Assembly (NCBI GenBank): GCA_043823745.1
Contig: JBDRAN010000028.1
Location: forward strand, 3,116 to 67,115
Direction: 5' to 3'
From: Candidatus Omnitrophota bacterium
GTDB lineage: Bacteria > Omnitrophota > Gorgyraeia > Duberdicusellales > 4484-171
Length of the DNA: 64,000 nt
The position numbers and the translations under genes are program-made. Shown piece after piece: positions 17,596-57,665 of this stretch. Position 1 is the stretch's first letter, and each line of letters opens with the position of its first letter. A model generated the notes under the pieces. It saw nothing but the letters and a program-made list of their open reading frames with translations, ran no database searches and was not told the origin of the DNA.

Positions 17596-17680
17596 GAAGG
17601 CGTATTGAGTACAGAGTATTGAGTATTGTGCAGGGAATAGAAATAATATTTAGTAAACTCAATACCCAATACTCGATACT
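17596..17680. repeat. Palindromic repeat family A, copy A1 (AGTATTGAGTA arms, with the core AAACTCAATACCCAATACTC).
   Basis: The inverted arms GTATTGAGTA...GAGTATTGAGTATTG and CAATACCCAATACTCGATAC are visible directly. The same 20-mer occurs at about 36335 and about 42892. Confidence 0.6.
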
Positions 17681-28844: not shown

Positions 28845-30175
28845 AATATCTTAATACGAGAAATGCTATCATTGTTTTGATCATCGCTCTGTGCCTGCAT
28901 CTAGGCGTAGGATTTTTAGCCAGTCCCCTCGTAAGCCGTGTTGCGCTCAGCGCTCTCAACCAGCATACCAAGGCCAAGATAACGCTTGAAGGTTTTAACG
29001 TCTGGCCGCTTACCTTGTCTTTTTCAATGCGAGGTTTAAGTGTCTTTGACCCGCAGGATGTTTCAAAGCGCATCGTGCGTGTCAATAATGCTTCAGCGCG
29101 TCTTAGCTTTTTAGGTCTTCTTTCGCGTCGCGTGGCTATTGCCGGCGCCAACGTTGATGGCGTTGATGTAAATGTAGAAGGAGCTCCTGACGGAAGTTTC
29201 AATATTGAGAAGGTCATGAAACCGGCGAGTCCTTCTGAACCGTCCGGTCCCGTATCGGTGCCGCAAGGTCTCGATACATACAAGGATTGGTTCGGTAAAG
29301 CGCGAAGAGCGCTTGCGAAACGTTTTTCACAACAAACAACCGCACAAGAGGCGGCTCGGAAAAAAGAAGGCACCGCGGTCAAGCGCGAAGTGAGTCCGTT
29401 CCCTCGGGGTAAGCGCGTGTATTTTAAGAAATATCGTGATAGTTATATCTTTGAGGTCGGACGCCTGAATATAAAAAATGCCGTTGTCCACATTAAAACA
29501 AGTGACGGTGTCGCACTGGACGTCACCGGCATGACTTTACGTCTTTCCGGATTGGGTATTGACCCTGCCGATGGCATGCGGCTTACCCAAGCTGTACTGG
29601 AAGGCGCTGTTTCCCGGGAAAGCAAGCCCGTTGGAAACGTACGCGCGCATTTTGTAAAAAAAGCCGGCAAGGATATCAAGGAAACGTATGAGATCGCCAC
29701 GCGCGATCTTGACCTTTCGGCGATACGTTTTATCTATCAGGAATCGTTGCCGGTTAATCTGGTCAAGGGGTTCTTGACGCTTGATTCAAAAACTACCTTT
29801 GTGAACGAAAATATCAATTCACACAATAGTATCGTTCTGCGGGACCATGAGCTCGGCCCCAAAGCAGGGGTTGACGTGGGCGGATTCCTGCCCCCGGACG
29901 TTGTTTTTAAAGCCTTAAACGATGTAAATCCGCTTAATCTCGATTTTGTTATTACCGGCACGATTGATAAGCCTGAATTCAAGGGTTTTCAGCAGTCATT
30001 GATGCAGATTGTTGCGCCCTCGGCAAAAGCTATCGGTGAGGAGTTTAAGAAAAAAGGTTTAAGCATGGTCAATGATCTTCTTAAGAAAAATAGTGGTTCT
30101 TCCGGGTCTTCGAGCAATGATACGTCTTCGGACACCATCGATTCTTTCAAAAGTCTTTTCAAGAAGAAGAAATAA
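28841..30175 (+). CDS. AsmA-like/DUF748-family protein (TIGR03545-like) with an N-terminal membrane anchor.
   Basis: It is 444 aa, with an N-terminal TM helix and a C-terminal Ser-rich tail. Its ATGA overlap with the DUF2062 gene is the pairing usually seen for these two families. Confidence 0.5.
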   Translation: MKYLNTRNAIIVLIIALCLHLGVGFLASPLVSRVALSALNQHTKAKITLEGFNVWPLTLSFSMRGLSVFDPQDVSKRIVRVNNASARLSFLGLLSRRVAIAGANVDGVDVNVEGAPDGSFNIEKVMKPASPSEPSGPVSVPQGLDTYKDWFGKARRALAKRFSQQTTAQEAARKKEGTAVKREVSPFPRGKRVYFKKYRDSYIFEVGRLNIKNAVVHIKTSDGVALDVTGMTLRLSGLGIDPADGMRLTQAVLEGAVSRESKPVGNVRAHFVKKAGKDIKETYEIATRDLDLSAIRFIYQESLPVNLVKGFLTLDSKTTFVNENINSHNSIVLRDHELGPKAGVDVGGFLPPDVVFKALNDVNPLNLDFVITGTIDKPEFKGFQQSLMQIVAPSAKAIGEEFKKKGLSMVNDLLKKNSGSSGSSSNDTSSDTIDSFKSLFKKKK

Positions 30176-30185
30176 CACGTATATT

Positions 30186-30313
30186 TAGCGTGGAGCGTAG
30201 AGCGTTTGCTACAATTTAGCGTAGAGCGTGGAGCGTTTAGCGTAGAGCAAAAAATACTTAAAGTTCTACGTTCCCTCTTCCTATACGCTCTCCGCTATCC
30301 GCTCTACGCTTAT
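30186..30313. repeat. Palindromic repeat family B, copy B1 (TAGCGTAGAGCG / CGCTCTACGCT arms).
   Basis: The left arm is TTTAGCGTGGAGCGTAGAGCG...TTTAGCGTAGAGCGTGGAGCGTTTAGCGTAGAGC and the right arm is CGCTCTCCGCTATCCGCTCTACGCT. Confidence 0.6.
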
Positions 30314-30485
30314 TCCCCTCGGGGCGGTGTGGTAAAAAGTCAGAAGAAAGTAGAAAACAGCCATTGGCGGGAAAGACCCCGAAGAGTACACTGACGAGTG
30401 TAAGGGTGTGCGTGAAGATGTATGGTGGGCTCGCCGGCTCGAACGTTTTATTGTTCGCCCTCTCCTTTGGCGGCGATGAGGGAAG

Positions 30486-33446
30486 ATGTCAAATCTCATT
30501 CGTGTGCTCATTGTTGAAGATTCTGAAGATGATGCCTTACTGATTGTGCGCCATCTTAAAGCCGGCGGCTACGAGCCCCAGTGGCAGCGCGTGGACACCG
30601 TGTATGCGATGAGCGCCGCACTCGCCCAAGCCTGGGATGTGGCGATTATTGATTATTCTCTCCCGCAGTTAAACGGTATTGATGCGCTTGGCTTAATTAA
30701 GGAAACCGGCATCGACCTTCCGGCCATTATCGTTTCGGGTGTTTATGGCGAAGAGATAGCGGTTGAGGTAATGAAAGCAGGCGCTGCCGATTATGTTTTA
30801 AAAGAAAAACTTTCCCGCCTGGTTCCTGCCCTTAGCCGCGAATTGCAGCAAGCCAAAATACGAAAAGAACGTATTCATGCCCAAGAGAACTTCAACCGCG
30901 AAAAGCTTTTAAGTGAAAGTATTATCAATAATATTCCGGCCGGGGTTGCCTTTCTTGACAATAATTTTGTGCTGCGCCGCCATAACGTTGCCTACGCAAG
31001 CTTTCTGCGCCGCTATGCTCTCTATGCTCCGGAGCAGGCCATGGGGATGGCTTATTTTGATTATATGCCCGGCAGCAGGCCGCAGGTCGAAGAGTGGTTT
31101 GTCCGCGTCAGAGATTCGGGGTGCCCTGAAGTACGCTATAATTTTGAACTTTCCGTCGAGAAGAACGGAAAGAAGCAATTAACCTGGTGGGATACCAGTA
31201 TTGCGCCGGTGTTTGACGCCTATGGGGCGACTGAGGGCATTTTGCTTTTGACGCAGGATGTAACCGAGCGGGTGCAGATAACGCGGGATCGCGACCGGCT
31301 TTTTAATTTTTCCATCGATATGTTTTCTATTACCGGCTTCGACGGCTATTTCAAGGAAGTTAATCCCGCCTGGCAAAAGACTCTCGGTTTTACAAAAAAA
31401 GAATTATTAGCGAAACCCCTGATCCATTTTGTGTATCCGCTTGATCGGGCGGCAACGAAACTTGCCCTGGCGCAACTGCGCCAAGGGAGAGAAGTTGTTG
31501 GTTTTGATAGCCGGTTTTGTTGCAAAGACGGTACGTTTAAATGGATTTCCTGGAATGCGTTTCCTTTACCGGAGGAAAACGTTATTTTTTCTGTCGCGCG
31601 TGATATCTTGGTCCAGAAACTCGCGCATGAGTTATTGCAGCGCAGCGAAGCTCGCTACCGCACGTTGATTGAGCGGGCTACTGACGCCATATTCATGTAT
31701 ACTCGGCAAGGGAAAATCGTTGACGTTAACCCGGCCGCGCTTAAGAGTTTGGGGTATAGCCGTAAAGAATTGTTATCGATGTCTCTTTTTGATATTGAGG
31801 TTGATCGTAATCATACAACCATCCAAAGAATCATACGTAAGGCGTTGTCAGGGGCGCCGGTAATTTTTGAGGGGTGGTATCGGCGTAAAGATGGTTCGCG
31901 ATTTCCCGTTGAAATCAACATCGGTAGTTTTGAGGGTGACTGTGTTGGCGGCAAGGGGCTGATTGCTGTTGTTCGTGATGCGAGCGAGCGTAACCGTACG
32001 CAGGAAGCGCTTGCAGAGGCTCAACGTAAGCTTGTAACGTTGATGAGCAACCTCCCCGGTATGGCGTATCGTTGTCGTAACGATAAAAATTGGACCATGG
32101 AATTTGTCAGCCGGGGTTGCAAGGCGCTGACCGGATATAGCCCCGAGGCAATACTGGGAAATAGTGTTCTTTCCTATGCGGATATTATAGCGCCCCAATA
32201 CCGGGATTATGTGTGGAGTACGGTTCAGGAAGCTTTAAAGCTTCGAAAACCGTTCCAGCTTATTTACCGCATTAAAATCTCAAACGGAAAGATAAAATGG
32301 GTATGGGAGCAGGGTAGTGGTGTGTATGGCGAGAAAGGAGAACTTCAGGCATTAGAGGGTTTTATTACCGACATTTCTGATCGTAAGAACATGGAAGAAT
32401 CTTTACGTATTTCTGAGGAGCAGTACCGTCTTCTTTTTGAAAATAACCCGCATCCAATGTGGGTGGCCGATGCGAAGAGTTTCAGGTTTCTCGCGGTTAA
32501 TGACGCGGCCTTGCGTCACTATGGATATTCACGCCAGGAATTTCTTCGTATGGGCGCTGCGGATATCCGTCCCAAGGAAGATGTTTCCCGGTTTAACGAG
32601 TATCTAAAGGCAAAAAAGAACGATGCTGTTCGCACGTCAAGCCAGTGGCGCCACCGGAAACAAGACGGTACGGTTATTGATGTTGATGTGGCCTCGCATG
32701 CCATCGTATTTGCCGGGAAAAAAGCCCGTCTGGTGCTGGCCCAAGACATTACTGAGCGCAAACGGGTAGAAGTGATGCGTGAAGCGCTTATCCGTAATGT
32801 CTCTCATGAGCTGAAAACCCCTGTCGCGATGCTTTCGATGGTGCATGATATGGCTACGCGCGCAATAGCCGCCGGCGACATCGAACAGATTAAAAAAAGC
32901 TACAGCATTATGCATGAGTGTATTGTTCGTCTTAAAAAAGATATTTCTAATATTTTGCAAATCTCGGCTCTTGAGAAAATGAAAAAGAGTAAAACGCGCG
33001 CGTTATCGTTTGTGCGCATTGAATTACGCCGAATTATTGATAGAATGCCGTTGACGAAAAAGGGTATTTCTTTTTCCTGCACGATCCCTCCCGCAGCGGA
33101 TAAAATAGGTATTTCGGCGCATCACCTGCATACCCTTCTGTACAATCTTCTTGATAACGCGGTTAAATTTAGCACGGCAGGGAGTATAAAAATTCGGGGG
33201 CGGGGTGCCGGCAACAAGGTCATTCTTTACGTGCGGGATGCCGGTTGCGGCATGACGCGTGAGCAGCAGGGTAATGTATTCACCCGGTTTTTCAAGGCAC
33301 ATCCTTCCTTTTCGGGGACAGGATTGGGGCTTGCGATTTGCAAGGACATCGTAGATCTTTACGGTGGAAGCATTGCGGTTTCCTCAGCAGGGAAAAATAA
33401 GGGTACAACAGTGACGCTCGTGCTGCCACGGGCCCGGGGTCATTAA
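30486..33446 (+). CDS. Hybrid sensor histidine kinase: N-terminal REC, multiple PAS domains, then HisKA and HATPase_c.
   Basis: The REC domain has IVEDSEDDALL..D..IIDYSLP. There are 4-5 PAS repeats. The H-box is VSHELKTPVAM and the G-box is GTGLGLAICKDIV. Confidence 0.85.
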   Translation: MSNLIRVLIVEDSEDDALLIVRHLKAGGYEPQWQRVDTVYAMSAALAQAWDVAIIDYSLPQLNGIDALGLIKETGIDLPAIIVSGVYGEEIAVEVMKAGAADYVLKEKLSRLVPALSRELQQAKIRKERIHAQENFNREKLLSESIINNIPAGVAFLDNNFVLRRHNVAYASFLRRYALYAPEQAMGMAYFDYMPGSRPQVEEWFVRVRDSGCPEVRYNFELSVEKNGKKQLTWWDTSIAPVFDAYGATEGILLLTQDVTERVQITRDRDRLFNFSIDMFSITGFDGYFKEVNPAWQKTLGFTKKELLAKPLIHFVYPLDRAATKLALAQLRQGREVVGFDSRFCCKDGTFKWISWNAFPLPEENVIFSVARDILVQKLAHELLQRSEARYRTLIERATDAIFMYTRQGKIVDVNPAALKSLGYSRKELLSMSLFDIEVDRNHTTIQRIIRKALSGAPVIFEGWYRRKDGSRFPVEINIGSFEGDCVGGKGLIAVVRDASERNRTQEALAEAQRKLVTLMSNLPGMAYRCRNDKNWTMEFVSRGCKALTGYSPEAILGNSVLSYADIIAPQYRDYVWSTVQEALKLRKPFQLIYRIKISNGKIKWVWEQGSGVYGEKGELQALEGFITDISDRKNMEESLRISEEQYRLLFENNPHPMWVADAKSFRFLAVNDAALRHYGYSRQEFLRMGAADIRPKEDVSRFNEYLKAKKNDAVRTSSQWRHRKQDGTVIDVDVASHAIVFAGKKARLVLAQDITERKRVEVMREALIRNVSHELKTPVAMLSMVHDMATRAIAAGDIEQIKKSYSIMHECIVRLKKDISNILQISALEKMKKSKTRALSFVRIELRRIIDRMPLTKKGISFSCTIPPAADKIGISAHHLHTLLYNLLDNAVKFSTAGSIKIRGRGAGNKVILYVRDAGCGMTREQQGNVFTRFFKAHPSFSGTGLGLAICKDIVDLYGGSIAVSSAGKNKGTTVTLVLPRARGH

Positions 33447-33454
33447 GGAGCGTT

Positions 33455-33820
33455 ATGAAGAATATTCTAATTGTTGATGACGAGCCGGCGATGCATGAGT
33501 TGTATCGGGACATGTTTTCGTTGGCCCAAGATCGGTATGATATCGAGATCCAGTTTGATGCAGCTGAGGCGCTGGTCCGCGCGCATCAGAAAAAGTTTGA
33601 CCTTATCATTCTTGATATTATCATGGAGCCGATGGCGGGAGATTCTCTGCTTGTGTACTTAAGAAAAGACAGCCAGACTAAAGATATACCGGTCCTTATC
33701 GCCAGCGCCTTAAACCCGGCAATATTGCGAACGTTGCAGACGATCAATCACCTTACAATTATCCAGAAGCCTTTTAAGGCGAAAGACCTTTTTGAGAATC
33801 TTGATAGAATATTGAATTAA
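33455..33820 (+). CDS. Stand-alone single-domain response regulator (CheY-like REC).
   Basis: It has ILIVDDEPAMHELY...LIILDIIMEP and is 121 aa. Confidence 0.8.
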   Translation: MKNILIVDDEPAMHELYRDMFSLAQDRYDIEIQFDAAEALVRAHQKKFDLIILDIIMEPMAGDSLLVYLRKDSQTKDIPVLIASALNPAILRTLQTINHLTIIQKPFKAKDLFENLDRILN

Positions 33821-33877
33821 TGGGGAGAGATGGGCATCCGCATGCTTCGCAAGCTTAAGGCGCTCGTCGCAAGCAGG

Positions 33878-33950
33878 AAAATTACTAATGACTGAGCATA
33901 AATTACTAAATAAAAATATTTCGTAATTATAATTTAGTAATTAGTAATTT
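33878..33950. repeat. Inverted-repeat family C, copy C1 (AAATTACTAAT ... TTAGTAATTAGTAATT).
   Basis: It is visible in the sequence, and a second copy lies at 39425-39495. Confidence 0.45.
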
Positions 33951-34018
33951 GTTTGGCGCCTTGACGCTTGACACAATGCGTAATGCGTTTTAGGCTATAG
34001 GTATACAGGAGGGCCGAG

Positions 34019-34747
34019 GTGTCGTATACGATCCTTTTGGTTGATGATGATAAAGAGTTCAGGTCGGTGTTTAAAAAATACCTGGAGGGGTACCGGATTA
34101 TTGAAACCGATAGCGGCGCTGCGGCGCTTGCTATCTTAAAGAAACCCAACGATATTGATTTGGTGATACTTGATGTGGTAATGCCCGGCCTGCAGGGGAT
34201 CGATGTGTTGCGGGAAATTCGCAAGGTAAACGAAAAGTTGAGCGTTATCATGCTGACCGCATATGGTTCTAAAGATGTAGCGGTCGAGGCGCTGCGCAGC
34301 CACGCCGACGATTTTATCGAGAAGGGTATGTCCATCAGTGAGATAGAGAGGGTTATCACCAGGGTTATGGAGGCTCATGGCATTTCCGCGGGCATTCATG
34401 GCAACGGCCTCGCTGCGAAAATCGAAAAAGCAAAACGGTATGCCGAAATAAACTGTTATAAAAAATTTTCTTTACGGGATGCTGCCGAGAGCGTATGTTT
34501 GAGCCCGAAATATTTAAGCCGCGTGTTTAAGGAGTATGCAGGTACCGGATTTAGCGCGTATCGCCTGGCTATAAAGATAAAGGAAGCTCGCCGCCTTCTT
34601 GCGCATGCGACTTGTAACGTGAGTCAGATTGCCGATAAGCTAGGATATAAAAATGTAGAATCTTTTATTCGTCAGTTCAAGAAAATGACCGGTACCACCC
34701 CTTCGGTGTTCCGCAAGAGTAAAATCAAAAAAACTAAGCGCTCATGA
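34019..34747 (+). CDS. Response regulator with an AraC-type HTH output (REC + HTH_AraC).
   Basis: It has ILLVDDDKEFRSVF...LVILDVVMPG, and the C-terminus carries the AraC signature IADKLGYKNVESFIRQFKKMTG. Confidence 0.8.
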   Translation: MSYTILLVDDDKEFRSVFKKYLEGYRIIETDSGAAALAILKKPNDIDLVILDVVMPGLQGIDVLREIRKVNEKLSVIMLTAYGSKDVAVEALRSHADDFIEKGMSISEIERVITRVMEAHGISAGIHGNGLAAKIEKAKRYAEINCYKKFSLRDAAESVCLSPKYLSRVFKEYAGTGFSAYRLAIKIKEARRLLAHATCNVSQIADKLGYKNVESFIRQFKKMTGTTPSVFRKSKIKKTKRS

Positions 34748-35270
34748 CCGCGAACACAGGGACACGAACGAAAATAAAAAATCCCAAATCTCAAACTCAA
34801 AACAAATTCCAATTATCAAAACTATCCGCCGAAGGCGAGACCTCGCCAGCTATCGCTGACGGGCAATGTTCTAAACGGGATCATTTTTTGTCAGGCCCTT
34901 CCTTTAGTCGGAACAGGGAAGCCTACCCTTTAGGGTTATTGGATAATTGGAGTTTGGAACTTATTTATGTTTTTCCGCCCCTTTGGGCGAGATCTCGCCT
35001 ATATACACTAATTAATGTGGCGGAGGTGCTTGCCATTTGGAATTTTTTACACCCCTCGTCCGAGCGTATGCGGCCGCACGTCGTCGGATAACGAGCTTGT
35101 ATCCTGACGTTTTGGTGTCTACCGCCTCACGCTCCCCAAAAGCTCGCTGCTGAGTGCTTAGAGATAGTAGAAAAAAGTCAATAAAAAGTGGAAAACCCCT
35201 CTTTACCGGTTATGGGTAAGTTAGTAATATTTATATACTTAATTATAGTAGCGGATAGTGGTTACTGGAG

Positions 35271-35352
35271 AAAGTATTGAGTATCGAGTACAGAGCATTA
35301 AGTACGTAGTTCTAAAGCGCAACACTCAATACGCAATGCTCAATACGAAAGC
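35271..35352. repeat. Family A-related partial copy A4 (AGTATTGAGTATCGAGTACAGAGC ... ACTCAATACGCAATGCTCAATACG).
   Basis: It is visible in the sequence. Confidence 0.45.
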
Positions 35353-35505
35353 GGAATAGTTTGTGGCGTAAGGCTAACGTGGCGCGCAAGGCGCCATGTA
35401 TTCCAAAAAAATCCGTGGCTTGGGCTTTACGCCACCTGTCTTTATATAGAGATTCCAGAGATCAGGAAAAGATTACCTGTAATCATTTTTTTAATCGCTG
35501 TAATC

Positions 35506-35712
35506 TTGAGCAATATTCATTATACTAAAATGGTACAAGTTCAATGTAAAAAATGTGGCGAGATACGCTTTACTGCCTATCCGCAGATATCGGTATGCGT
35601 TTGTGGCGGGAGATTTAAAGCTATTGATTTCGACCGCCAGGACAAGGAATGCCCTGCGGAGAAAAAATGCCAACACTTGATTGATTCCTTAGAGTACCTA
35701 CGGGAAACGTAA
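35506..35712 (+). CDS. Putative small zinc-ribbon protein (CKKCG...CVCGG).
   Basis: It is a 68-aa ORF with two CxxC/CxC pairs. The RBS is weak, and it is the only ORF in a 1.1 kb gap. Confidence 0.3.
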   Translation: MSNIHYTKMVQVQCKKCGEIRFTAYPQISVCVCGGRFKAIDFDRQDKECPAEKKCQHLIDSLEYLRET

Positions 35713-35884
35713 CACGTAGCCAACCGCTCCCGCGAGTGCAAAAATTCGCTTTCTTTTTGACGCAAGCGTGTATACAATAGAAATATTATATGACTCATGC
35801 GTGGCCGATGATGCGGTTCTTGAGGCAATTCTTTTCCTGTAGGGAGGGGTTGCCTTTTTTTATTGATGGATATGTAATTGCGCA

Positions 35885-36262
35885 ATGAAGAAAACGATCC
35901 TCATAGTCGATGATGATCCGGCGATGCATGAAGTATATGGTGATATGTTTCGGCAATCAGACCGGTACCAGCTTGCGCGCGCCTATAGCGTCGAGGAGGC
36001 TTTGAAGGGATTGAAAACTCGGCGCATTGACCTGATACTGCTTGATATCATCATGGAACCGATACCGGGCTCCTATCTGTATCTTAAAGTAGCGCGGGAT
36101 AAAAAAATACAAAACGAGAAAATACCTATCATCGTCGTCAGCGTTCTTAAAGAACATGAGCTTGGCTCTTTGGGAAAACTCGACAACCTTATATTTTTTG
36201 CCAAGCCCTTTAAGAAAGAGGCGTTGATGGGGAAGATTGAGGAATTGTTGGGAAGCGATTAG
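35885..36262 (+). CDS. Stand-alone single-domain response regulator, paralogous to the one at 33455.
   Basis: It has ILIVDDDPAMHEVYGDMF...LILLDIIMEP. Confidence 0.8.
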   Translation: MKKTILIVDDDPAMHEVYGDMFRQSDRYQLARAYSVEEALKGLKTRRIDLILLDIIMEPIPGSYLYLKVARDKKIQNEKIPIIVVSVLKEHELGSLGKLDNLIFFAKPFKKEALMGKIEELLGSD

Positions 36263-36264
36263 CA

Positions 36265-36368
36265 AAAAGTATTGAGTATCGAGTATAGAGCATCGAGCAT
36301 TGAACAGGGAATAAAAAATGAGTATTTAATAAACTCAATACCCAATACTCACTGCACAATACGTAATA
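36265..36368. repeat. Repeat family A, copy A2.
   Basis: The sequence reads AAAAGTATTGAGTATCGAGTATAGAGCATCGAGC...AAACTCAATACCCAATACTCACTGCACAATACG. Confidence 0.6.
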
Positions 36369-36379
36369 AGGGGGGGAAT

Positions 36380-36745
36380 ATGCTTAAGAAAAAAATATTA
36401 GTTGTTGATGATGAACGTGATTTTCTTAATTTAATACGCATACGGCTTGAGTCAAGCAAATACGAAGTTATTACTGCTTGCGACGGCGTCGATGCGCTCT
36501 TAAAATTTGATGAATGCCCGCCGGACGCAGTCATGCTCGATATTCTCATGCCCAACATGGACGGCCTGGAAGTTTTAAAGAAAATAAGAGCCAAGGACAA
36601 AAATATCCCTATCTTCATCATTACCGCGTTTTCTAATGAGGAGCGACTGAAGCTTGCCAAGGAATTAAATGTTAACGGTTTCATGGATAAAACCGCCGAT
36701 TTAAAAACCGAAATAGAGCATGTGGCGGAAGCGCTCGGGAAATAG
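36380..36745 (+). CDS. Stand-alone single-domain response regulator.
   Basis: It has ILVVDDERDFLNLI...AVMLDILMPNMDG. Its stop codon TAG is the first TAG of the family-B repeat. Confidence 0.8.
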   Translation: MLKKKILVVDDERDFLNLIRIRLESSKYEVITACDGVDALLKFDECPPDAVMLDILMPNMDGLEVLKKIRAKDKNIPIFIITAFSNEERLKLAKELNVNGFMDKTADLKTEIEHVAEALGK

Positions 36746-36774
36746 CGTAGAGCGGATAGCGTAGAGCGTAGAGG
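36742..36774. repeat. Family B left-arm copy, B2 (ATAGCGTAGAGCGGATAGCGTAGAGCGTAGAGG).
   Basis: It is visible in the sequence. Confidence 0.5.
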
Positions 36775-36811
36775 AAGAAAAATATACAGGAATAGCGCAA
36801 AAGGAAAGAAA

Positions 36812-37162
36812 ATGGTAACAAAGAGCTTCAAAGATCTGATAGTTTGGCAGAAAGCATATGCTTTAACTATAGAGATTTATAAGGTGGCTAGTCATTTCCC
36901 TGCTGTTGAGTTGTATGGCTTGCGGCAACAGATGTGTCGTGCCGCAATATCCATACCGTCCAATATCGCTGAAGGATATGGCCGTTCGTATCGTAAGGAA
37001 TATTCACAATTTCTCTCTATAGCCTATGGGTCCTTGTGCGAGCTGGAAACGCAGTATTTATTAGCACTTGAATTTGGTTATCTCAAAAAAACCGAAACGA
37101 TTGAACTTTTAATAAAAGAAGTGGGAAGTATGCTTTATTGTATGATAAATCCCAGAAAATAG
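36812..37162 (+). CDS. Four-helix-bundle protein of the TIGR02436 / 23S rRNA intervening-sequence protein type.
   Basis: It has WQKAYALTIEIYKVASHFP...ISIPSNIAEGYGR...ELETQ, and the RBS is AAAGGAAAG. Confidence 0.75.
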   Translation: MVTKSFKDLIVWQKAYALTIEIYKVASHFPAVELYGLRQQMCRAAISIPSNIAEGYGRSYRKEYSQFLSIAYGSLCELETQYLLALEFGYLKKTETIELLIKEVGSMLYCMINPRK

Positions 37163-37165
37163 GAG

Positions 37166-37252
37166 AAAGCGGAGAGCGTAGAGAAAGAAGGAGCGTAGAA
37201 TTTTACATTATTTATTTTCCCCTCTACGCTATCCGCTCCACGCTCTACGCTA
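37166..37252. repeat. Family B, copy B3: a complete hairpin element directly downstream of the four-helix-bundle gene.
   Basis: The left arm is GCGGAGAGCGTAGAGAAAGAAGGAGCGTAGAA. The loop is TTTTACATTATTTATTTTC. The right arm is CCCTCTACGCTATCCGCTCCACGCTCTACGCTAG. Confidence 0.6.
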
Positions 37253-37268
37253 GAAAAAAGGAGGATCA

Positions 37269-37658
37269 ATGGATGCCAAGAAAAAAGTTTTGATTATTGA
37301 CGATGAAGAAAATTTTACCAAAATCATCAAACTGAACCTTGAGGCAACGGGAAAATACGATGTCTTTGTCGAGAACGATTCAATCCGGGGCTTGAGCAGT
37401 GCAAAAAAAAATATGCCTGACGTGATACTACTCGATATTCTTATGCCTAAGATTGACGGGTTTGAGCTTTTGCGTGCACTTAAGAAAGATATGCCTACAA
37501 TCGCGATCCCGGTAATTATGCTTACCGCGGTAATGGCCGATGAAGCAAAGGCTATGGCCGCCCGGTTGTATGATGAGTCGTATATGGTGAAGCCGGTTGC
37601 CGCCGAGGTGCTTGAGAAAGAAATAGAGAGAGTGTTGGCGCGCCACAGTGGTAATTAG
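37269..37658 (+). CDS. Stand-alone single-domain response regulator.
   Basis: It has VLIIDDEENFTKII...VILLDILMPKIDG. Confidence 0.8.
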   Translation: MDAKKKVLIIDDEENFTKIIKLNLEATGKYDVFVENDSIRGLSSAKKNMPDVILLDILMPKIDGFELLRALKKDMPTIAIPVIMLTAVMADEAKAMAARLYDESYMVKPVAAEVLEKEIERVLARHSGN

Positions 37659-37843
37659 GTCCTTTCATCGTCTATTCTTCGTAGTCCGTTCCCTTCGGGG
37701 ATCCCCTGACGGGGAGGCTTCGCACGGCTCCGCACTCGTTAGTCGTCCGTGACGGAATACGAACGAGTGCATAGCCTGCCGCAGGGCACGGGATACGGAA
37801 GACGGTCGACGAGATAATTATTTATTAAAGAAAGGAGCCTGCT

Positions 37844-39349
37844 ATGTTTGATTCCCAAAGTCTAAGCGCGCAACCCGAAATAATACATGTTTTACTTATT
37901 GAAGATAATCCCGGAGACGTGCGGTTGTTCAAAGAGTTGTTATCGGAGATTCCCGAGACCCCGTTTACCGTAGAATGCGTCAGCCGGCTCGGCGAGGCTT
38001 TAGCGCGCCTTGAAAAAAGGGGTATTGACGTCATTGTCGTTGATCTCGGCCTTCCTGATAGCAAGGGTATTGACACATTTAGGAGTATTTATACTACCGC
38101 GCCTCGCGTGCCGATCGTGGTTGTTACGGGAATGCATGGTCAAGCTTTGAGCGTTTTGGCTCAGGGCGCCCAGGATTATCTTATCAAAGGAAACGTCGAC
38201 GCTGCCATTATATCGCGGACATTGCGATATGCGATTGAGCGTAACAAGCTTAAAACCGCGTATGAGGATTTAGTGAATACGATCACGCATGAGTTGCGCA
38301 TCCCCCTTGGTATTGTACGGGAGGGGGTTTCCCAGATTTGCGATGGCCTGCACGGGGAGATATCCGAAAAAAGCAAAGAATTTCTGGTGCTGGCAATCCA
38401 CAATATCGACAGGCTCAAGCGGCTTATCGATAATCTTTTAGGTGTCGCCAAGCTCGATGCGGGAAAGGTGAAGTTACATAAGTCCATTTTTGATATAACC
38501 GAGCTGGCGCGCGAAATGAGCGCTATTTTTTCAACTCGTGTACAGGGGCGTGACGTGGAGTTGCGTTGTCGTTTTCCCGGCAGCGTCATTAACGTGTATG
38601 CCGATCGGGATAAGATCGTGGAAGTGTTTACCAACCTGATCGGAAACGCGCTTAAGTTTACCGAACGGGGCCTCATCGAGATTGTGCTTCTTGAGAAAGA
38701 GGATTATGTCGCCTGCGCGGTGCGTGATACCGGTTACGGTATTCCTGCGGAACACCTGCCGCATATCTTCGATAAATTTCAGCAATTCTCGCGTAAAGTA
38801 GCTTTCGGGGAAAAAGGTACCGGCCTTGGCCTTGCGATCGTGAAGGGTATTCTTGAGTTGCACGATGAAGCAATCGACGTAGAAAGCGCGATTGGAGCCG
38901 GCACAACGTTTACGTTTACGCTCCATAAGCATCTGGCGCAGCCGCCCTGCAAGGAGCACATTGATGCGTGCATTGCGCAGGCTGGGCTCAAAAACGTGTC
39001 TTTTTCTTTGATCGCGGTCTCGGGCATTAATCTGGAGACATTAAAACACGTTGCGACGCCGGAATCGGCAACGCAAATCATGACGCAGGTACACGCAATA
39101 TTTAAAAGTAGCCTGCGTCGTGCCGAGGATAGCGTTTTTGATTTAACGAGTGAGATACTCGTGCTTTTGATTGACTGTGACAAAGAGGGTGTTGGGGTGG
39201 TTAAGTCCCGGCTTGCCCAACAATTATTCAATTATCTGGCGAGCAACGGATTTTCTGATAGAATATATCTTAAATTTGGCTGTGTCACCTATCCCGATGA
39301 TGCGACCAGCCGGGAAGGGTTACTCGCTGCGGTAATATCGCAACTGTAG
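37844..39349 (+). CDS. Hybrid histidine kinase: REC, HisKA, HATPase_c, and a C-terminal degenerate GGDEF-like domain.
   Basis: The REC domain has VLLIEDNPGDVRLF..VIVVDLGLPD. The H-box is ITHELRIPLG and the G-box is GTGLGLAIVKGI. In the C-terminal roughly 150 aa the GG(D/E)EF motif is replaced by DLTSE, while the RAED (RxxD) I-site is kept. Confidence 0.8.
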   Translation: MFDSQSLSAQPEIIHVLLIEDNPGDVRLFKELLSEIPETPFTVECVSRLGEALARLEKRGIDVIVVDLGLPDSKGIDTFRSIYTTAPRVPIVVVTGMHGQALSVLAQGAQDYLIKGNVDAAIISRTLRYAIERNKLKTAYEDLVNTITHELRIPLGIVREGVSQICDGLHGEISEKSKEFLVLAIHNIDRLKRLIDNLLGVAKLDAGKVKLHKSIFDITELAREMSAIFSTRVQGRDVELRCRFPGSVINVYADRDKIVEVFTNLIGNALKFTERGLIEIVLLEKEDYVACAVRDTGYGIPAEHLPHIFDKFQQFSRKVAFGEKGTGLGLAIVKGILELHDEAIDVESAIGAGTTFTFTLHKHLAQPPCKEHIDACIAQAGLKNVSFSLIAVSGINLETLKHVATPESATQIMTQVHAIFKSSLRRAEDSVFDLTSEILVLLIDCDKEGVGVVKSRLAQQLFNYLASNGFSDRIYLKFGCVTYPDDATSREGLLAAVISQL

Positions 39350-39424
39350 TAACGCAGGGTCGTAGGGTTCAATACGTGACAATGTGCCAAGGCATCAAAG
39401 TGTCAAAGCATCAACGCGTCAGAG

Positions 39425-39495
39425 TAAATTACTAATTGCTAAATTCTAATGACGAACCATTTCCTTTTAGTAATTCGTGCTTAGTAATTAGTGAT
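39425..39495. repeat. Inverted-repeat family C, copy C2.
   Basis: It has AAATTACTAATTGCTAAATTC...TTTTAGTAATTCGTGCTTAGTAATTAGTGATT. Confidence 0.45.
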
Positions 39496-39562
39496 TTTTC
39501 TGCTCTACGTTAGACTTGATACCCTGACACTTTTCCATTGATGTTTTTCAACCAATACCTGA

Positions 39563-40552
39563 ATGGTTAATTTCTTCTACTCCATAAGCGGCTATATCTT
39601 TTTTTCCATCTTTCTTGTTTCTGTATTCTGCCTTTTATGTATCACCCTTTTTATAATTCTGAGACAGCGTAAAAAATTACAAAGTCAGTCGTTGCGCCTT
39701 TTAGCGGTGACCGAAGAAGAGCGTTTTACGCTCGAGCGGGCGCGTCATTTTGTTTACCGCCTCGATACGCGGGGGATTGCGCGCTATGTTTCTGCCTCGA
39801 TTGAAAGGATTACCGGCCGCCTGCCACAGGAGTGGCGTGCGCACTACGCTACCTTTCTTACTGATAATATCTGTAATCAGAAAGCGATCGAATATATTGA
39901 GAAGGCGCTGCGCGCCGGCGAGAAGCCCCCGGTTTTTGAGCTGGAGATGTTTCATAAAAACGGCAGGCGTATTTATCTTGAGATGAGCCTGCAGCCGACG
40001 CGTGAAGTCGGGAACGTAACCGGCATTGCGGGTATCGCGCGGGATATCAGCGAGCGCAAAGAAATGGAGAGGGAGCTGGCGAAAGCTCACGAACTTAGCC
40101 TTTCAATCATCAAAGCGCTTCCTTTCGGGATGGATATTGTAGATTATAACGGTAATATCCTGTATGCGAGCGAAAAGTTTATTGCAGCATTTGGGCATGA
40201 TATTATCGGTAAGAAGTGCTGGATTCTTTATCGGGACGATAAAAAGCAGTGCACCAGCTGTCCCCTGATAAAAGGTGTGGCGGTCGGACAGGTCCTGGTT
40301 TCAGAGGTGGGCGGTGTTTTGGACGGAAAAATATTTGAGATAACGCACGTCGGTCTTGTTTTTAACGGGGCACCCGCGGTACTTGAATTTTTTAACGATA
40401 TTACCGAGCACAAGCGTATTCAAGATGATCTTAATACAAAGGTCCAGGCGCTCCAGCGTTTCCAGAGCGTGACGATTGACCGTGAGTTAAAAATGAAAGA
40501 GCTTAAAGCGCGGATTGCCGAGCTTGAGGAGAAACTAGAAAAATATACATAG
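39563..40552 (+). CDS. Membrane-anchored tandem-PAS protein with a C-terminal coiled coil and no output domain.
   Basis: It has an N-terminal TM helix, two PAS-like segments and a final heptad-rich tail. Its stop TAG lies inside a family-B repeat. Confidence 0.65.
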   Translation: MVNFFYSISGYIFFSIFLVSVFCLLCITLFIILRQRKKLQSQSLRLLAVTEEERFTLERARHFVYRLDTRGIARYVSASIERITGRLPQEWRAHYATFLTDNICNQKAIEYIEKALRAGEKPPVFELEMFHKNGRRIYLEMSLQPTREVGNVTGIAGIARDISERKEMERELAKAHELSLSIIKALPFGMDIVDYNGNILYASEKFIAAFGHDIIGKKCWILYRDDKKQCTSCPLIKGVAVGQVLVSEVGGVLDGKIFEITHVGLVFNGAPAVLEFFNDITEHKRIQDDLNTKVQALQRFQSVTIDRELKMKELKARIAELEEKLEKYT

Positions 40553-40722
40553 CGTAGAGTCCCCTTTGGGGGAGGCTTCGCACCGTATAGCGTAGAGCGT
40601 AGAGGAAGAGAGGGTAAGTGTGAGAGGCGTAGTTTTAGAAATTTTTCTTTATTTTCTACTCTACGCTAAACGCTCCACGCTCTACGCTAAATCGTAGCAA
40701 ACGTTCTACGCTCCACGCTAGG
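40550..40722. repeat. Family B, copy B4: a long hairpin element that includes the 34-mer GTCCCCTTTGGGGGAGGCTTCGCACCGTATAGCG.
   Basis: The left arm is TAGCGTAGAGCGTAGAGGAAG. The loop is AT-rich. The right arm is ACTCTACGCTAAACGCTCCACGCTCTACGCTAAATCGTAGCAAACGTTCTACGCTCCACGCTA. Confidence 0.6.
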
Positions 40723-40739
40723 ATATGGATAACTAAATT

Positions 40740-42818
40740 ATGCTTAACCTAAAATTCGGAATCAGGCAGAAAGTAATCGTGATGATTTTTATTTCTGTTT
40801 TTGCCGCGGTTATCCTGACGGCAGGATTTTATTACTTTCTTGGGTACCGGTTCCAGGAGAAGGTTATGAGCGCGCAGTATTACCGTAGCGCCCAGATTCT
40901 TTCGCAAGCGTTAGGGAAAATGTTTAACGACCAGATGCAGTTTATACGAGTACAGGTGGCTACGTACCCATGGAACGACGACTTGGTTCGGGTCAATGCG
41001 CAGTATCAGGGTCGCGCGCAGGAATCGATTGTTGCCGAGCTTATGGAGAAAGATCAACATTGGATAGCGGATCAAGGCCAGGATGGAATCATCCGGCAAT
41101 ATTTGCAAAATCCCGCAAGCGAAAAGCTTGTGCGCCTGGTAGCTGCCGACCCTAAAATTGCGGAAATCTTTATTACCGATGCGTACGGTGGCCTAGTGGC
41201 TGCCTCGGGAAGAACTTCAGATTTTTATCAGGCGGACGAACAGTGGTGGCAGGACGGCTATGCCGGAGGAGCCGGGCGCGATTGCGTCGGTGACGTCGAG
41301 TATGACGCGTCCGCGAAGACCTTGAGTATTCCGTTTATAACGCCGGTGCGCGATGAAAAGGGGAACGTCTCAGGGGTTTGCAAGGCAGTGCTTAACCTTG
41401 AGGCGTTCCTTGAACCCCTCTCAAGCCTTTCGATCGGAAAAACCGGTCACGCCGCGTTGCTCAACGCAAACGGGCAGATCATTTTTCATCAGGGTATTAC
41501 CCCGTTAAGCCGGTTATTTTCCGACCGGAAAGATTTCAGCGTTTTCCTTGCGGAGCAACAAAAGTTCTCAATAGCGCCCTTGTCTCACGAGCAGAACGAA
41601 CGAAGGTTTTTCGTTAGCGTGCCTTTTATCTCGTCGTTATTCGCGGACAAACAAATGCGGTGGTATGTAGTGATTGAGCAGGCCGCGTCTGAGGTATTTG
41701 CACCGCTTGTTGAGCTGAACATCAAGCTTATGGCTGTTGCCGGGGTTACGCTTATTCTGATGCTGCCTTTGGGGTTTTTATTGGGGGGTGTTTTTTCCCG
41801 GCCTATCCTCGCTCTCCATAAGGCGATCACTAAAATTACCGAAGGTGTATGGGATTATGCGGTTGAGATTAAAAGCGGAGACGAGGTTGAACAATTTGCC
41901 GAAGCGTTTAAGAAAATGATTTTAACGACACGTAATAAACAGCGGGAGCTGATTGCCGCAAAAAATGAGCTTGAAGCGTTGGCAAAAAGCCTTGAAGATA
42001 AGGTCCGGGAGCGTACGGGGGAGCTTGAGCGTGTTAATAAGGCGAGCCTTAATATTCTTGAAGATCTGACCGAAGCGAAAAGAAATTTAAGCAAGTATTC
42101 CAAGGATCTTAAGGAAGCGATCATTGTTAAGTCAGACTTTACGTCTATGGTTTCTCATGAGTTACGCACGCCCCTGACCGCGATCAAAGAAGGTATTTCG
42201 ATCGTGCTTGACGGCACAACCGGGCAGCTCAACAAAGACCAGGAGAACTTTCTTTCGATAGCCAAAAGCAATGTTGACCGCCTCACGCGGCTCATTAACG
42301 ACATTCTTGATTTTCAGAAGCTCGAGGCGGGTAAATTAGAGTTTACGATGAAGGTGTATGACATAACCGAAGTTCTTTGGGAAGTTCAGAATACGATGGA
42401 ATCGGCGATTAAGGCGAAAAAGCTTACCTTTGCCTCTGAATTCCCCGGGAATCTGCCTGAATTGACCTTCGATCGCGATAGAATCATTCAGGTGATCATG
42501 AACCTTATTACCAACGCATGTAAGTTTACCGAACGCGGCGGCATTATCTTGCGCGCAGAACTGTTGGGTGAGTATGTTCGGGTATGCGTCGAGGATACCG
42601 GTTGTGGTGTTTCCGAGGGGGATATCCCTAAGCTTTTTCAGAAATTTACTCAACTGGAGACCGGTGTCAGCAGAAAAGTCGGCGGCACCGGGCTTGGCCT
42701 TGCGATCTCAAAACAAATTATCGACGCGCACGGCGGAAAAATTTGGCTTGAATCGGTAGCCGGCAAAGGCTCGAAGTTTTATTTTACCTTACCGATTAAG
42801 AAAGCGGATAGCGTATAG
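40740..42818 (+). CDS. Sensor histidine kinase with a periplasmic Cache-like domain, then HAMP, HisKA and HATPase_c.
   Basis: It has two TM helices flanking a periplasmic domain of about 280 aa. The H-box is VSHELRTPLTAIKEG and the G-box is GTGLGLAISKQII. It ends in KADSV, which is encoded by the repeat. Confidence 0.85.
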   Translation: MLNLKFGIRQKVIVMIFISVFAAVILTAGFYYFLGYRFQEKVMSAQYYRSAQILSQALGKMFNDQMQFIRVQVATYPWNDDLVRVNAQYQGRAQESIVAELMEKDQHWIADQGQDGIIRQYLQNPASEKLVRLVAADPKIAEIFITDAYGGLVAASGRTSDFYQADEQWWQDGYAGGAGRDCVGDVEYDASAKTLSIPFITPVRDEKGNVSGVCKAVLNLEAFLEPLSSLSIGKTGHAALLNANGQIIFHQGITPLSRLFSDRKDFSVFLAEQQKFSIAPLSHEQNERRFFVSVPFISSLFADKQMRWYVVIEQAASEVFAPLVELNIKLMAVAGVTLILMLPLGFLLGGVFSRPILALHKAITKITEGVWDYAVEIKSGDEVEQFAEAFKKMILTTRNKQRELIAAKNELEALAKSLEDKVRERTGELERVNKASLNILEDLTEAKRNLSKYSKDLKEAIIVKSDFTSMVSHELRTPLTAIKEGISIVLDGTTGQLNKDQENFLSIAKSNVDRLTRLINDILDFQKLEAGKLEFTMKVYDITEVLWEVQNTMESAIKAKKLTFASEFPGNLPELTFDRDRIIQVIMNLITNACKFTERGGIILRAELLGEYVRVCVEDTGCGVSEGDIPKLFQKFTQLETGVSRKVGGTGLGLAISKQIIDAHGGKIWLESVAGKGSKFYFTLPIKKADSV

Positions 42819-42834
42819 CGATTAGCGGATAGCA

Positions 42835-42928
42835 GGAAGTATTGGGTATAGAGTACAGAGTATTGAGTAGAGAATGAAAAATAAGGATTTATAAACTCAA
42901 TACCCAATACTCGTACACAATACGAACG
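42835..42928. repeat. Repeat family A, copy A3.
   Basis: It has GGAAGTATTGGGTATAGAGTACAGAGTATTGAGTAGAG...AAACTCAATACCCAATACTCGTACACAATACG. Confidence 0.6.
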
Positions 42929-42984
42929 CAAAAAACATCGTGATAATTGAGAGAAAGAGTGTATAATAACTCAATATTACAAGA

Positions 42985-43102
42985 AAGCGTTTAGCGGTTA
43001 GTCCCCTTTGGGGGAGGCTTCGCACCGTATAGCGAGAGAAAAAAGGAGTATAGAATTTCACATTCTTTATTTTCCGCCTCTATGCTACCCACTCTACGCT
43101 AG
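42985..43102. repeat. Family B, copy B5, which shares the 34-mer with B4.
   Basis: It has GCGTTTAGCGGTTAGTCCCCTTTGGGGGAGGCTTCGCACCGTATAGCG...CCTCTATGCTACCCACTCTACGCTAG. Confidence 0.6.
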
Positions 43103-43122
43103 ATCCCGGATGATGATAGTAA

Positions 43123-43539
43123 ATGCTTAACAATATGCCAAAATTAACTATATTGCTGGCTGATGATGAAAAAGATTTCCTGACTATGTTGGCTATGCGC
43201 CTTAAGGCGTGGGGGTATGAGGTCATCGTAGCGGAGGAAGGAGCAGAGGCAGTTAGGTTGGTACGCGATAAAAAACCCGATGTCGTTATCATTGACTATA
43301 TGATGCCTGAAATGGACGGTGTTGCGGCCTTGCGGGAGATTCGAAAAACCAATGCGGATGTGCCCGTTATTATGCTTACCGCGTATCCCGATAAACATTC
43401 TATCAAGGGGGCTGAAACGTTGGATGTTCTCGCGTATATACCTAAAGTGAGCGCTCATTCCGACACACAAGCGCTCCTGCGATCAGCGCTGCGTATGGCA
43501 GAGAGGGCGATCGGCAAAGGGAAAGCGGATAGCGTTTAG
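43123..43539 (+). CDS. Stand-alone single-domain response regulator.
   Basis: It has ILLADDEKDFLTML...VVIIDYMMPEMDG. It ends in KADSV plus a TAG supplied by a family-B repeat. Confidence 0.8.
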   Translation: MLNNMPKLTILLADDEKDFLTMLAMRLKAWGYEVIVAEEGAEAVRLVRDKKPDVVIIDYMMPEMDGVAALREIRKTNADVPVIMLTAYPDKHSIKGAETLDVLAYIPKVSAHSDTQALLRSALRMAERAIGKGKADSV

Positions 43540-43633
43540 CGGATAGCGCAGAGCGTAGAGGAAACGGAGAGTTTAGAAAATACTGTTCTTTTTATTCTCC
43601 ACTCTACGCTAAACGCTCCACGCTCTACGCTAG
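43524..43633. repeat. Family B, copy B6, which shares a 31-mer, ACTCTACGCTAAACGCTCCACGCTCTACGCTA, with B4.
   Basis: It has AAAGCGGATAGCGTTTAGCGGATAGCGCAGAGCGTAGAGGAAACGG...loop...ACTCTACGCTAAACGCTCCACGCTCTACGCTAG. Confidence 0.6.
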
Positions 43634-57402: not shown

Positions 57403-57419
57403 AAAAAAGCTCATAGCTC

Positions 57420-57665
57420 ATAAGCTCATGAGTGCATGGAAGCGATTTACGTCTATCGGTTGGGGTTGCGAGGCTCGTTTCGGTTACGTTAAACGTCAAT
57501 CGGCTTTATTGGTAAGATATTTTTTACGCAACCTTTTACTTACGTATGACGTAACGAGCTGCACACCAGTGCGTCCCGGTGAGGGGCTGCACACCAGTGC
57601 GTTCCGTAAGGGGCTTTGCACCCCCCTTCGGGGAGGCTACGCACGGCTTCGCACCGGTTAGCGTA
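57420..57665. repeat. Composite intergenic repeat region: GCTCATAGCTCATAAGCTCATGAG, two copies of GCTGCACACCAGTGCGT, and CCCCTTCGGGGAGGCTACGCAC.
   Basis: It is visible in the sequence. The CCCCTT(C/T)GGGG-GAGGCTTCGCAC motif recurs at about 37688, 40560 and 43003. Confidence 0.4.

Follow-up and report, generated by a model that had tools for sequence, protein, structure and literature searches.

Why do several unrelated signalling genes in one stretch of an Omnitrophota genome stop within copies of the same hairpin repeat, and why do two of them share their last five amino acids? The stretch examined here, hereafter the window, is 64,000 nucleotides of Candidatus Omnitrophota bacterium (GCA_043823745.1, contig JBDRAN010000028.1, positions 3,116 to 67,115), and the repeat, termed family B, occurs in it as five to six copies within 14 kb. 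Family B probably consists of inserted inverted-repeat hairpin elements of the kind known in bacteria as MITEs (transposable elements that are miniature and inverted-repeat) and intervening sequences (IVSs), with one copy bearing a gene for a 23S rRNA intervening sequence protein (IVP) and several gene-less derivatives. The original prediction, made from the letters alone, described the hairpins and the gene ends within them; the 7-nt unit structure of the arms, the IVP gene within the cassette and the cross-phylum generality are absent from it.

When the 12-mer TAGCGTAGAGCG is searched on both strands of the window with at most one mismatch, 20 matches are found, as compared with 0.32 expected and with a highest count of 2 in 100 dinucleotide shuffles. 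Seventeen of the 20 matches lie inside the predicted copies, and the remaining ones are at 39840 (within the PAS gene), 37220 (a second match in a listed copy) and 57659. All of the predicted copies are found at their positions by reading of the sequence and by a repeat finder. They are 90-173 nt in size, their arms are 17-44 nt long and 74-96% complementary, and as RNA their fold energies lie between -30 and -53 kcal/mol (z-scores between -2.4 and -5.9). The long words predicted to be common to pairs of copies are exact matches, but the word at 40658 and 43601 is 32 nt long and the one at 40560 and 43002 is 33 nt long, instead of 31 and 34 nt. The six hairpins that had been counted as separate copies are all present, but those at 36742-36774 and 37166-37252 belong to one cassette around the open reading frame (ORF) 36812-37162. 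Likewise, the predicted half-copy (42802-42835) and the copy at 42985-43102 are both real, but fold together into a single nested composite.

The arms are built of degenerate 7-nt units in tandem, NNNAGCG in the left arm (including TAGAGCG, TGGAGCG, GATAGCG and TTTAGCG) and CGCTNNN in the right arm. The left-arm unit has the consensus (T/G)(A/G/T)(G/T)AGCG, to which the right-arm unit is complementary; the elements have 5'-TAGCG...CGCTA-3' as their termini, and within the unit the 4-nt core AGCG is conserved and the other three bases are variable. Self-similarity across the 64 kb, examined at lags of 3-12, is detected at 25 positions for lag 7, at 4 positions for lag 9 and at none for the other lags. 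TAG is located at unit positions 1-3 or 3-5, and successive TAGs shift through successive frames. The left arm shuts all three frames within ~21 nt, because it presents a TAG every 7 nt; where reading continues through the right arm, CTA takes the place of TAG. The closure of all frames by these TAGs indicates that the supply of a stop codon and a tail is built into insertion of the element at the 3' end of a gene. The elements nearly fill the short junctions of the co-transcribed signalling operon in which they lie. The left arm begins at the upstream stop codon or a few codons ahead of it, and the right arms end shortly before the ribosome-binding site, 16-32 nt ahead of the next start codon.

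Four genes had been predicted to end on the first TAG of an element. All four end on a TAG inside an element, at 36743-36745 (REC), 40550-40552 (PAS), 42816-42818 (dCache-HAMP kinase) and 43537-43539 (REC), in agreement with independent gene calls. However, the kinase gene and the REC gene ending at 43539 use the second TAG, which is in frame, the first TAG of the array (GA-TAG-C) being out of frame. The predicted identity of the tails stands: the products of the kinase gene (40740) and the REC gene (43123) both end in KADSV, which is encoded by AAAGCGGATAGCGT(A/T)TAG from the repeat. The IVP gene itself stops on a TAG (37160-37162) adjoining an arm, and TAG is used by all five genes that adjoin a family B arm. 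Among the window ORFs of at least 110 codons (n=60), TAA, TAG and TGA are used 24, 23 and 13 times, respectively, and TAG is thus unusually common as a stop codon in the window (23/60). In eight of the 23 listed cases of TAG the next bases are CG (TAGCG; for example at 3409, 17546, 48386 and 51256), and the cases become nine if the REC stop at 36745, which was dropped by the ORF filter, is included. Such stops may be relics of decayed arms. Of ten listed plus-strand ORFs at 35.8-45.3 kb, eight terminate in TAG.

The elements are all read here on the plus strand. The first copy (30186-30311) is a gene-less hairpin with left heptamer arrays at 30186-30250 and a right array at 30278-30311; it begins 11 nt past the TAA of a DUF748/AsmA gene (28841-30175) and folds with an energy of -52.7 kcal/mol (z -5.9). 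The copy at 40550-40722 begins with the TAG that stops the PAS gene (40550-40552), contains a nested 29-nt insert (40559-40587), has right arms at 40657-40689 and 40703-40722, and ends 17 nt before the ATG of the kinase gene (40740). The spacer of 305 nt between the kinase and REC genes folds as one composite (42798-43106; -81.6 kcal/mol, z -4.7), in which outer family B arms at 42802-42835 and 43070-43102 surround a heptamer hairpin of another family, a small GGGGA hairpin and an inner family B hairpin. The outer left arm (42802-42835) encodes the kinase tail KADSV with the stop TAG 42816-42818 and pairs with 43090-43102. The nested content (42836-42984) consists of an AGTATTG-type hairpin of the other heptamer family (42836-42913; z -4.7) and a spacer. 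The inner family B hairpin and the terminal right arm (42985-43102) include a 29-nt insert at 43001-43029 and the closing arm at 43070-43102; this part is 93% identical to 40550-40592 in repeat-finder block D8. The 3' edge of the composite lies 20 nt before the ATG at 43123 and 32 nt before the called start at 43135. The last copy (43523-43632; -44.4 kcal/mol, z -4.95) has a left arm (43523-43560), which encodes the REC tail KADSV and the stop TAG 43537-43539, and a right arm (43596-43632), which stops 18 nt before the ATG of a GAF-kinase gene (43651); its identity in block D1 is 91%. A possible remnant of a left arm, GGCTTCGCACCGGTTAGCGTAGAGGGT, is located at 57645-57671 with 89% identity, and its TAG closes the ORF 57305-57661. 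The region 57560-57671 consists of tandem ~27-nt copies of GGGGCTGCACACCAGTGCGT(C/T)CCG..., followed by the mini-hairpin motif and then the TAGCGTAGAGGG arm remnant.

The order PAS-kinase-REC is kept in other Omnitrophota, and in three of these loci (L121, L123 and L124) the hairpin is absent and the junctions are 1-40 nt long. The kinase tail in these three loci is LPI(K/I)ERR(A/V/T), followed by TGA or TAA and encoded by non-repeat codons. The motif [ED]R[RK] follows directly after the domain-final LP(I/V) in 40 of the 52 listed kinase homologues of similar length, and is ERR in 35. The window kinase retains LPIK and then reads KADSV-TAG from the arm, indicating that the element replaced the last ~four codons of the kinase gene. 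Similarly, a REC orthologue (54% identical) ends in ...EKQKEG, whereas the window REC extends to ...GKGKADSV. None of the element-free orthologues ends in KADSV, and the reading of the shared tail as a coincidence is therefore not borne out. The prediction that the elements invade or define the 3' ends of genes is upheld, because the stops and tails are encoded by the elements and the element-free orthologues carry other, conserved tails. The sole similar tail among the homologues is TADSI in P0050 (L120), and here too a hairpin of this type, though decayed, comes after the gene. In this locus (GCA_964612915.1; 1-208 and 3560-3640), the decayed hairpin lies past the stop codon of the TADSI tail, and an IVP gene lies ~3 kb upstream in the same operon region. 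The possibility that the conserved kinase tail KERRx is itself encoded by heptamers, GAGCGTAGAGCGTAG giving ERRA and a stop, is ruled out by the non-repeat codons and the TGA or TAA stops in L121, L123 and L124. The elements had also been proposed to drive expansion of the REC paralogs. This proposal finds no support, because the element-free orthologous operons contain these REC genes as well and nothing ties the duplication junctions to the elements.

One of the elements, the cassette between two REC genes, encloses a gene. Its 44-nt arms at 36743-36786 and 37209-37252 are 77% complementary, lie 422 nt apart and surround the ORF 36812-37162; in the minimum-energy fold, the outermost 11 bp close the entire cassette. 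The REC ORF 36272-36745 ends in the outer left arm and has the first TAG of this arm (36743-36745) as its stop codon. The IVP gene (36812-37162) occupies the loop and ends with the TAG at 37160-37162 against an inner arm. The 3' part (37163-37252) comprises this inner left arm (37163-37200), a T-rich loop and the right arm (37209-37252), which stops 16 nt 5' of the ATG of the next REC gene (37269), just upstream of an AGGAGG ribosome-binding site. The product of the ORF is a four-helix-bundle protein of 116 amino acids, which is identified as an IVP by matches to PF05635 of Pfam (E 2.3e-36) and TIGR02436 (E 2.8e-34); the closest solved structure is that of XCC0516 (PDB 2GSC; E 1e-19).

The gene-less copies share with this cassette non-periodic, arm-proximal sequence that extends beyond the periodic arms. 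In the left arm, a 26-nt block in the region of 36743-36786 is 96% identical to 40584-40609 of a gene-less copy, and in the right arm and loop, 47-nt blocks of the cassette and the gene-less copies are 85-91% identical (for example, 85% to 40643-40689). In addition, 30186-30256 is 94% identical to the reverse complement of 40650-40720 over 71 nt, non-periodic bases included, and the same nested 29-nt insert is present in two copies (40559-40587 and 43001-43029). Sharing of non-periodic sequence with the cassette is as expected of internally deleted derivatives and speaks against independent local slippage.

The arm type TAGCG...CGCTA is also found around the nearest relatives of the window IVP (61-72% identity). 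These relatives are located between trpG and trpD, between pabB and pabC, between yajC and secD, or upstream of rpsA, and the host genes end in the arm with tails such as ...TSV, ...ISV, ...KKIA and ...NSVQRVAWSE. One of the relatives, from Atribacterota (L011), is 67% identical to the window IVP across phyla and has the same arms. In this locus (290-800), as well as in L125, L126 and L128, the IVP gene stops with a TAA within the first units of the right arm (...CCTATACGCTAAACGCT, giving P-I-R-stop), indicating that the gene of the cassette also takes its stop codon from an arm. Cassettes with the IVP gene between left and right AGCG-type arrays are found across phyla, in Cloacimonas (L037), Calditrichota (L056) and Anaerolineae (L062).

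A scan of metagenomes with an IVP alignment gives 80 loci, of which 67 have enough flank for an inverted-repeat test. When the 220-nt upstream flank is compared with the reverse complement of the downstream flank, the median score for these 67 loci is ~35, as compared with ~17 for the direct control and ~16.5 for shuffles, and z exceeds 5 for the inverted flanking arrays of ~50 of the 67. The arms consist of heptamer arrays, the unit of which varies from locus to locus (AGGAGTC, AGGGACC, AGTTTCG, TTAGGTG, AGTACCC, TAGCGTA and others). Lag-7 periodicity is restricted to ~150 nt on either side of the IVP gene, where it is detected in 7-8% of the windows; it is zero within the gene and falls to some tenths of a percent at greater distances, and hardly any periodicity is seen at lags 6 and 8. 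The arrays are polar, with 162 TAG versus 23 CTA upstream and 16 TAG versus 131 CTA downstream, and 31 of 65 upstream arrays close all three frames. The cassettes are co-oriented with their neighbours at 46 of 54 loci on one side and 46 of 53 on the other. Arm 6-mers are common to 88% of the pairs with at least 80% IVP identity, and to 1% of those below 50% identity. None of the 80 loci overlaps an rRNA model. A direct tie of the heptamer arms to classical 23S IVSs could therefore not be established from these loci, and the link comes from the published account of Coxiella only.

Arrays of the family B type are also widespread apart from the IVP gene. For the strict arm pattern CGCTNNNCGCTNNNCGCTCTACGCT, in which 19 bases are fixed, ~4 matches are expected by chance on both strands (our own calculation, 2 × 596 Gb / 4^19), as compared with more than 118 loci found in at least 10 phyla. 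The listed matches are from Atribacterota, Omnitrophota, Planctomycetota, Bacteroidota, Chloroflexota, Cloacimonadota, Calditrichota, Acidobacteriota, Elusimicrobiota and some Proteobacteria, and several genomes carry 3-8 of them each. Further copies thus exist elsewhere, as had been anticipated, namely in other genomes and several per genome, the source genome not being among the matches listed. With ORFs of at least 100 codons, some of them spurious, as proxies for genes, 89 left-oriented arrays have a long ORF reading into them; the stop codon of this ORF is inside the array in 35 of the 89 and within 30 nt upstream of it in 48. It is TAG in 28 of the 35, and most often the array's first one. 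The 35 of 89 ORF stops inside arrays indicate that stop supply is a general property of such arrays, not a local accident. In L010, L038 and L016, long, near-pure direct tracts of (CGCTCTA)n or (CGCTCCA CGCTTTT CGCTCTA ...)n with more than 10 units are present without an obvious inverted partner, and the family B unit thus also exists as a plain tandem array.

These tracts bear on the explanation that the arrays are heptanucleotide simple-sequence repeats grown in place by replication slippage, the copies being alike by convergence. Such repeats are widespread and form the commonest long class of simple-sequence repeats in prokaryotes according to the summary of Mrazek 2007 given in PMC4679880, the number of units differs among Coxiella strains (PMC4990558), and pure (CGCTCTA)n tracts occur in some genomes (L010 and L038). 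However, slippage cannot make a matching inverted array 40-450 nt away, and it leaves unexplained the shared non-periodic sequence of loops and flanks, the common nested insert, the constant TAG/CTA polarity and the association with a single gene family. Slippage as the sole explanation is largely refuted and has very little probability left.

The persistence of the 7-nt phase suggests another explanation, in which the arrays are a phased binding platform, as RNA or DNA, for a toroidal pentameric IVP or another protein that recognizes (U)AG/AGCG motifs spaced by 7 nt. On this view, a trans-acting system for processing, translation or mobility would use the hairpins as its cis-sites, and stop supply would be a side effect of the TAG within the recognized motif. 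Phased recognition of this sort exists, as HutP binds UAG-N4 repeats. Across the IVP loci the unit sequence changes fully, yet the 7-nt period, the complementarity of the arms and the TAG/CTA polarity persist; the arms co-vary with the IVP sequence; and within the family B unit the AGCG core is constant and three bases are variable. Furthermore, IVP homologues form a five-chain toroid (2GSC; PMC4990558), and IVP is homologous to Avd, a nucleic-acid-binding protein of diversity-generating retroelements. On the other hand, such a platform is proposed from the sequence pattern, co-inheritance of the gene with its flanks accounts for the co-variation equally well, arrays without the gene are ~30 times as numerous as IVP-adjacent ones in the cross-phylum set, and the Coxiella IVP is apparently not made (PMC4990558). 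We consider this explanation unlikely, but not as unlikely as slippage.

What do the hairpins do in the transcript? The prediction that they may act as terminators or attenuators is not supported, because every copy lacks a T/U tract, a terminator scan calls none of them and the sites are not enriched (24 terminator-like sites in the window as compared with 18.7 ± 4.4). Hairpins without U-tracts are not classical terminators, and the reading of the family B stems as intrinsic terminators is rejected. No Rfam family matches the hairpins, apart from chance-level matches to miRNA hairpins below threshold. More broadly, the hairpins might be host cis-regulatory RNAs that set the stoichiometry of the signalling proteins as terminators, as attenuators or as barriers to 3'-exonucleases like those formed by repetitive extragenic palindromic sequences (REPs). 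Very stable stems located exactly between co-directional genes agree with such a role, and REP and ERIC act so in enterobacteria (PMC2229807). The role is disfavoured, and we give it a low probability, because, besides the lack of a U-tract past any stem, of a terminator call and of an Rfam match, the same type of element occurs in unrelated operons (trp, pab, yajC-secD and rpsA) of other phyla, orthologous signalling operons lack it, and its mismatches show no bias of G:U over A:C.

Family B resembles several known systems and differs from each of them in some respects. In the 23S IVSs of the Leptospira, Coxiella and Xanthomonas type, a PF05635 gene lies in the loop of an inverted-repeat stem, as at 36743-37252. 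In Coxiella, the S23p/IVP ORF lies in a stem-loop of terminal inverted repeats, RNase III cuts at the first repeat, and the stem contains tandem GACAGAT heptamers, the copy number of which varies with the strain (PMC4990558). Unlike these IVSs, the window cassette is located between protein-coding genes instead of within an rRNA gene, supplies their stop codons and has gene-less copies. The MITEs, such as Correia/NEMIS of Neisseria, ERIC/IRU, RUP and YPAL, resemble family B in their size of ~90-170 nt, their terminal inverted repeats and their 5'-TA...TA-3' termini (PMC2229807). They also form long stem-loops in transcripts, are intergenic within operons, are dispersed in several copies and in some cases have stop codons in all frames (PMC2229807, PMC2649163). 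However, the arms of family B are degenerate heptamer arrays instead of a unique terminal inverted repeat, and the full-length relative carries a gene for a four-helix bundle instead of a transposase. We know of no IHF site or cognate insertion-sequence transposase for family B.

Other repeats resemble family B in their relation to genes. The Rickettsia palindromic elements (RPEs), which are MITE-ORF fusions, likewise add coding sequence to host proteins (PMC10969869, PMC2229807). However, they insert in frame in the middle of a gene and are read through, whereas family B closes all frames and replaces only the last 0-7 codons. REPs and their composites (BIMEs) are likewise extragenic palindromes at the 3' ends of operon genes, and GTAG is present within the family B unit (GCGTAGAGCG). 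However, they are single palindromes of 20-40 nt mobilised by RAYT, whereas the stems of family B are far longer (arms up to 44 nt) and heptamer-phased, and no RAYT is seen here, no search aimed at one having been made. Liang, Rudd and Deutscher reportedly found in 2015 that REPs within a few nucleotides of a stop codon lower translation through ribosome stalling. The heptanucleotide families, namely STRR of cyanobacteria, TAACTGA of Beggiatoaceae, Cyanobacteria and Bacteroidetes, and those of Geobacter metallireducens, have 7-nt units, are intergenic and are distributed patchily across phyla, as family B is (PMC4679880, PMC2700814). Unlike family B, the arrays of which come as inverted pairs, they mostly form direct arrays a short way upstream of start codons, and no link of theirs to stop codons, hairpin cassettes or IVP genes has been described; among the sites in PMC2700814 are some depicted as pairs of five MTYCTGA heptamers that switch strand.

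Thus, repeats that overlap gene ends or add coding sequence are already known (REP/BIME, ERIC, Correia and RPE; PMC2229807, PMC10969869), as are heptanucleotide repeats across phyla and heptamers in one IVS. In the searchable literature, no rule joining IVP genes and heptamer arrays is found beyond Coxiella. We could not find in the literature that IVP genes generally lie in polar, 7-nt-phased hairpin cassettes inside protein-coding operons and that gene-less copies write the stops and tails of host genes. IVP genes inside cas operons, for example between cmr3 and cmr2, have been published and taken as a sign of a possible Cas-associated function (PMC3936711). Sense-oriented insertion of the cassette between operon genes offers a simpler explanation.

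The following sequence of events would account for the window as one of inserted inverted-repeat elements. The elements probably came by insertion or duplication into tight operon junctions, not by local growth, and in some cases clipped the last codons of the gene. An upstream ORF hit at its 3' end would re-terminate after at most ~7 element-coded codons, because the left arm closes all frames within ~21 nt, and the shared KADSV tails and TAG stops would result. In the polycistronic RNA, the stem may be a site of processing by RNase III or of stability, as in the 23S IVSs and in Correia elements, which are substrates of RNase III (PMC2649163, PMC2229807), rather than a terminator. Excision of the window stems by RNase III would have its precedent in Coxiella only. 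The function that we prefer for the hairpins, with considerable doubt, is processing by RNase III or an influence on the stability of the mRNA. With its stop codon placed at the foot of a strong stem, the upstream gene may be expressed less. The spacing between stop and start is 1-2 nt in the orthologues, as compared with 110-320 nt of structure in the window, which would abolish translational coupling to the downstream gene. This loss at the window junctions is likely, as a side effect of the element.

Several results weigh against this reading. The mismatches in the arms are G:U in 62 cases and A:C in 80 (p = 0.15), and this lack of a G:U excess leaves no sequence signature of selection on a sense-strand RNA stem. 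Many stems are 4-bp helices split by 3 × 3 internal loops, and are poorer substrates for RNase III than the Coxiella stem. No transposase or mobilising enzyme is identified, a genome-wide search for transposases not having been made, and the sole gene-bearing relative codes for the four-helix-bundle IVP and not for a transposase. No pair of empty and filled sites at high identity is found, the closest kinase orthologue being ~47% identical, so that insertion and any target-site duplication are inferred only. At the termini TAGCG...CGCTA, a duplication of TA is inseparable from the inverted repeat itself, and the element-free orthologues are only distant (~46%). The sole other assembly of the region (JAHJZK010000317) is 100% identical and shows no strain polymorphism. 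The count of copies covers the 64-kb window, and that of array stops includes the spurious ones among its ORF proxies.

A wider version of this explanation is more speculative still. Heptamer hairpins and IVP may together be an unrecognised cross-phylum selfish cassette that invades operons. It would insert in the sense orientation between genes transcribed together, close frames from both sides by its TAG-phased arms and leave gene-less, MITE-like offspring; the toroidal pentameric IVP would read the 7-nt phase for mobility or RNA processing, and the classical 23S IVS would be a special case. We regard this version as possible but rather doubtful.

Heptamer hairpins of other types are also present in the window. 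A second family, with the units AGTATTG, AGTATCG and AGTACAG and the right arm ACTCAATACCCAATACT, is found at 17599-17679, 35271-35298, 36266-36351 and 42836-42913. The copy at 36266-36351 begins 4 nt past the TAG of a REC gene (35885-36262) and overlaps the mechanical TTG start of the ORF 36272. The true start of this REC ORF is probably the ATG at 36380, because the hairpin overlaps its TTG start. A third family, with the units AATTACT and AGTAATT, is found as hairpins at 33879-33950 and, within the region 39375-39545, at 39427-39489. Around the second of these lies an outer hairpin of another heptamer type (GCATCAA/GTGTCAA ... TTGATAC/CTGACAC), which fills the junction 39350-39562. The 29-nt element GTCCCCTTTGGGGGAGGCTTCGCACCGTA, which consists of a GGGGA mini-hairpin and GGCTTCGCAC, occupies the same site in the left arm of two family B copies. 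Its relatives stand alone at 37700-37725 and 57621-57644, and it resembles the very small nested repeats of cyanobacteria.

For genome annotation, these results mean that a sizeable share of gene 3' ends is written by repeats in Omnitrophota, Atribacterota, Planctomycetota, Bacteroidota, Chloroflexota and other phyla (35 of 89 in the sample), and that short shared tails such as ...DSV or ...ISV before the stop codon should not be taken as functional motifs. The PF05635/TIGR02436 proteins, which are very abundant and homologous to Avd, now have a concrete context as the cargo of polar, 7-nt-phased hairpins in host operons. The origin of the 23S rRNA IVSs is linked to a far larger population of elements in protein-coding operons, and the same population is a possible source of the patchy heptanucleotide repeats across phyla, which have so far been without an explanation.

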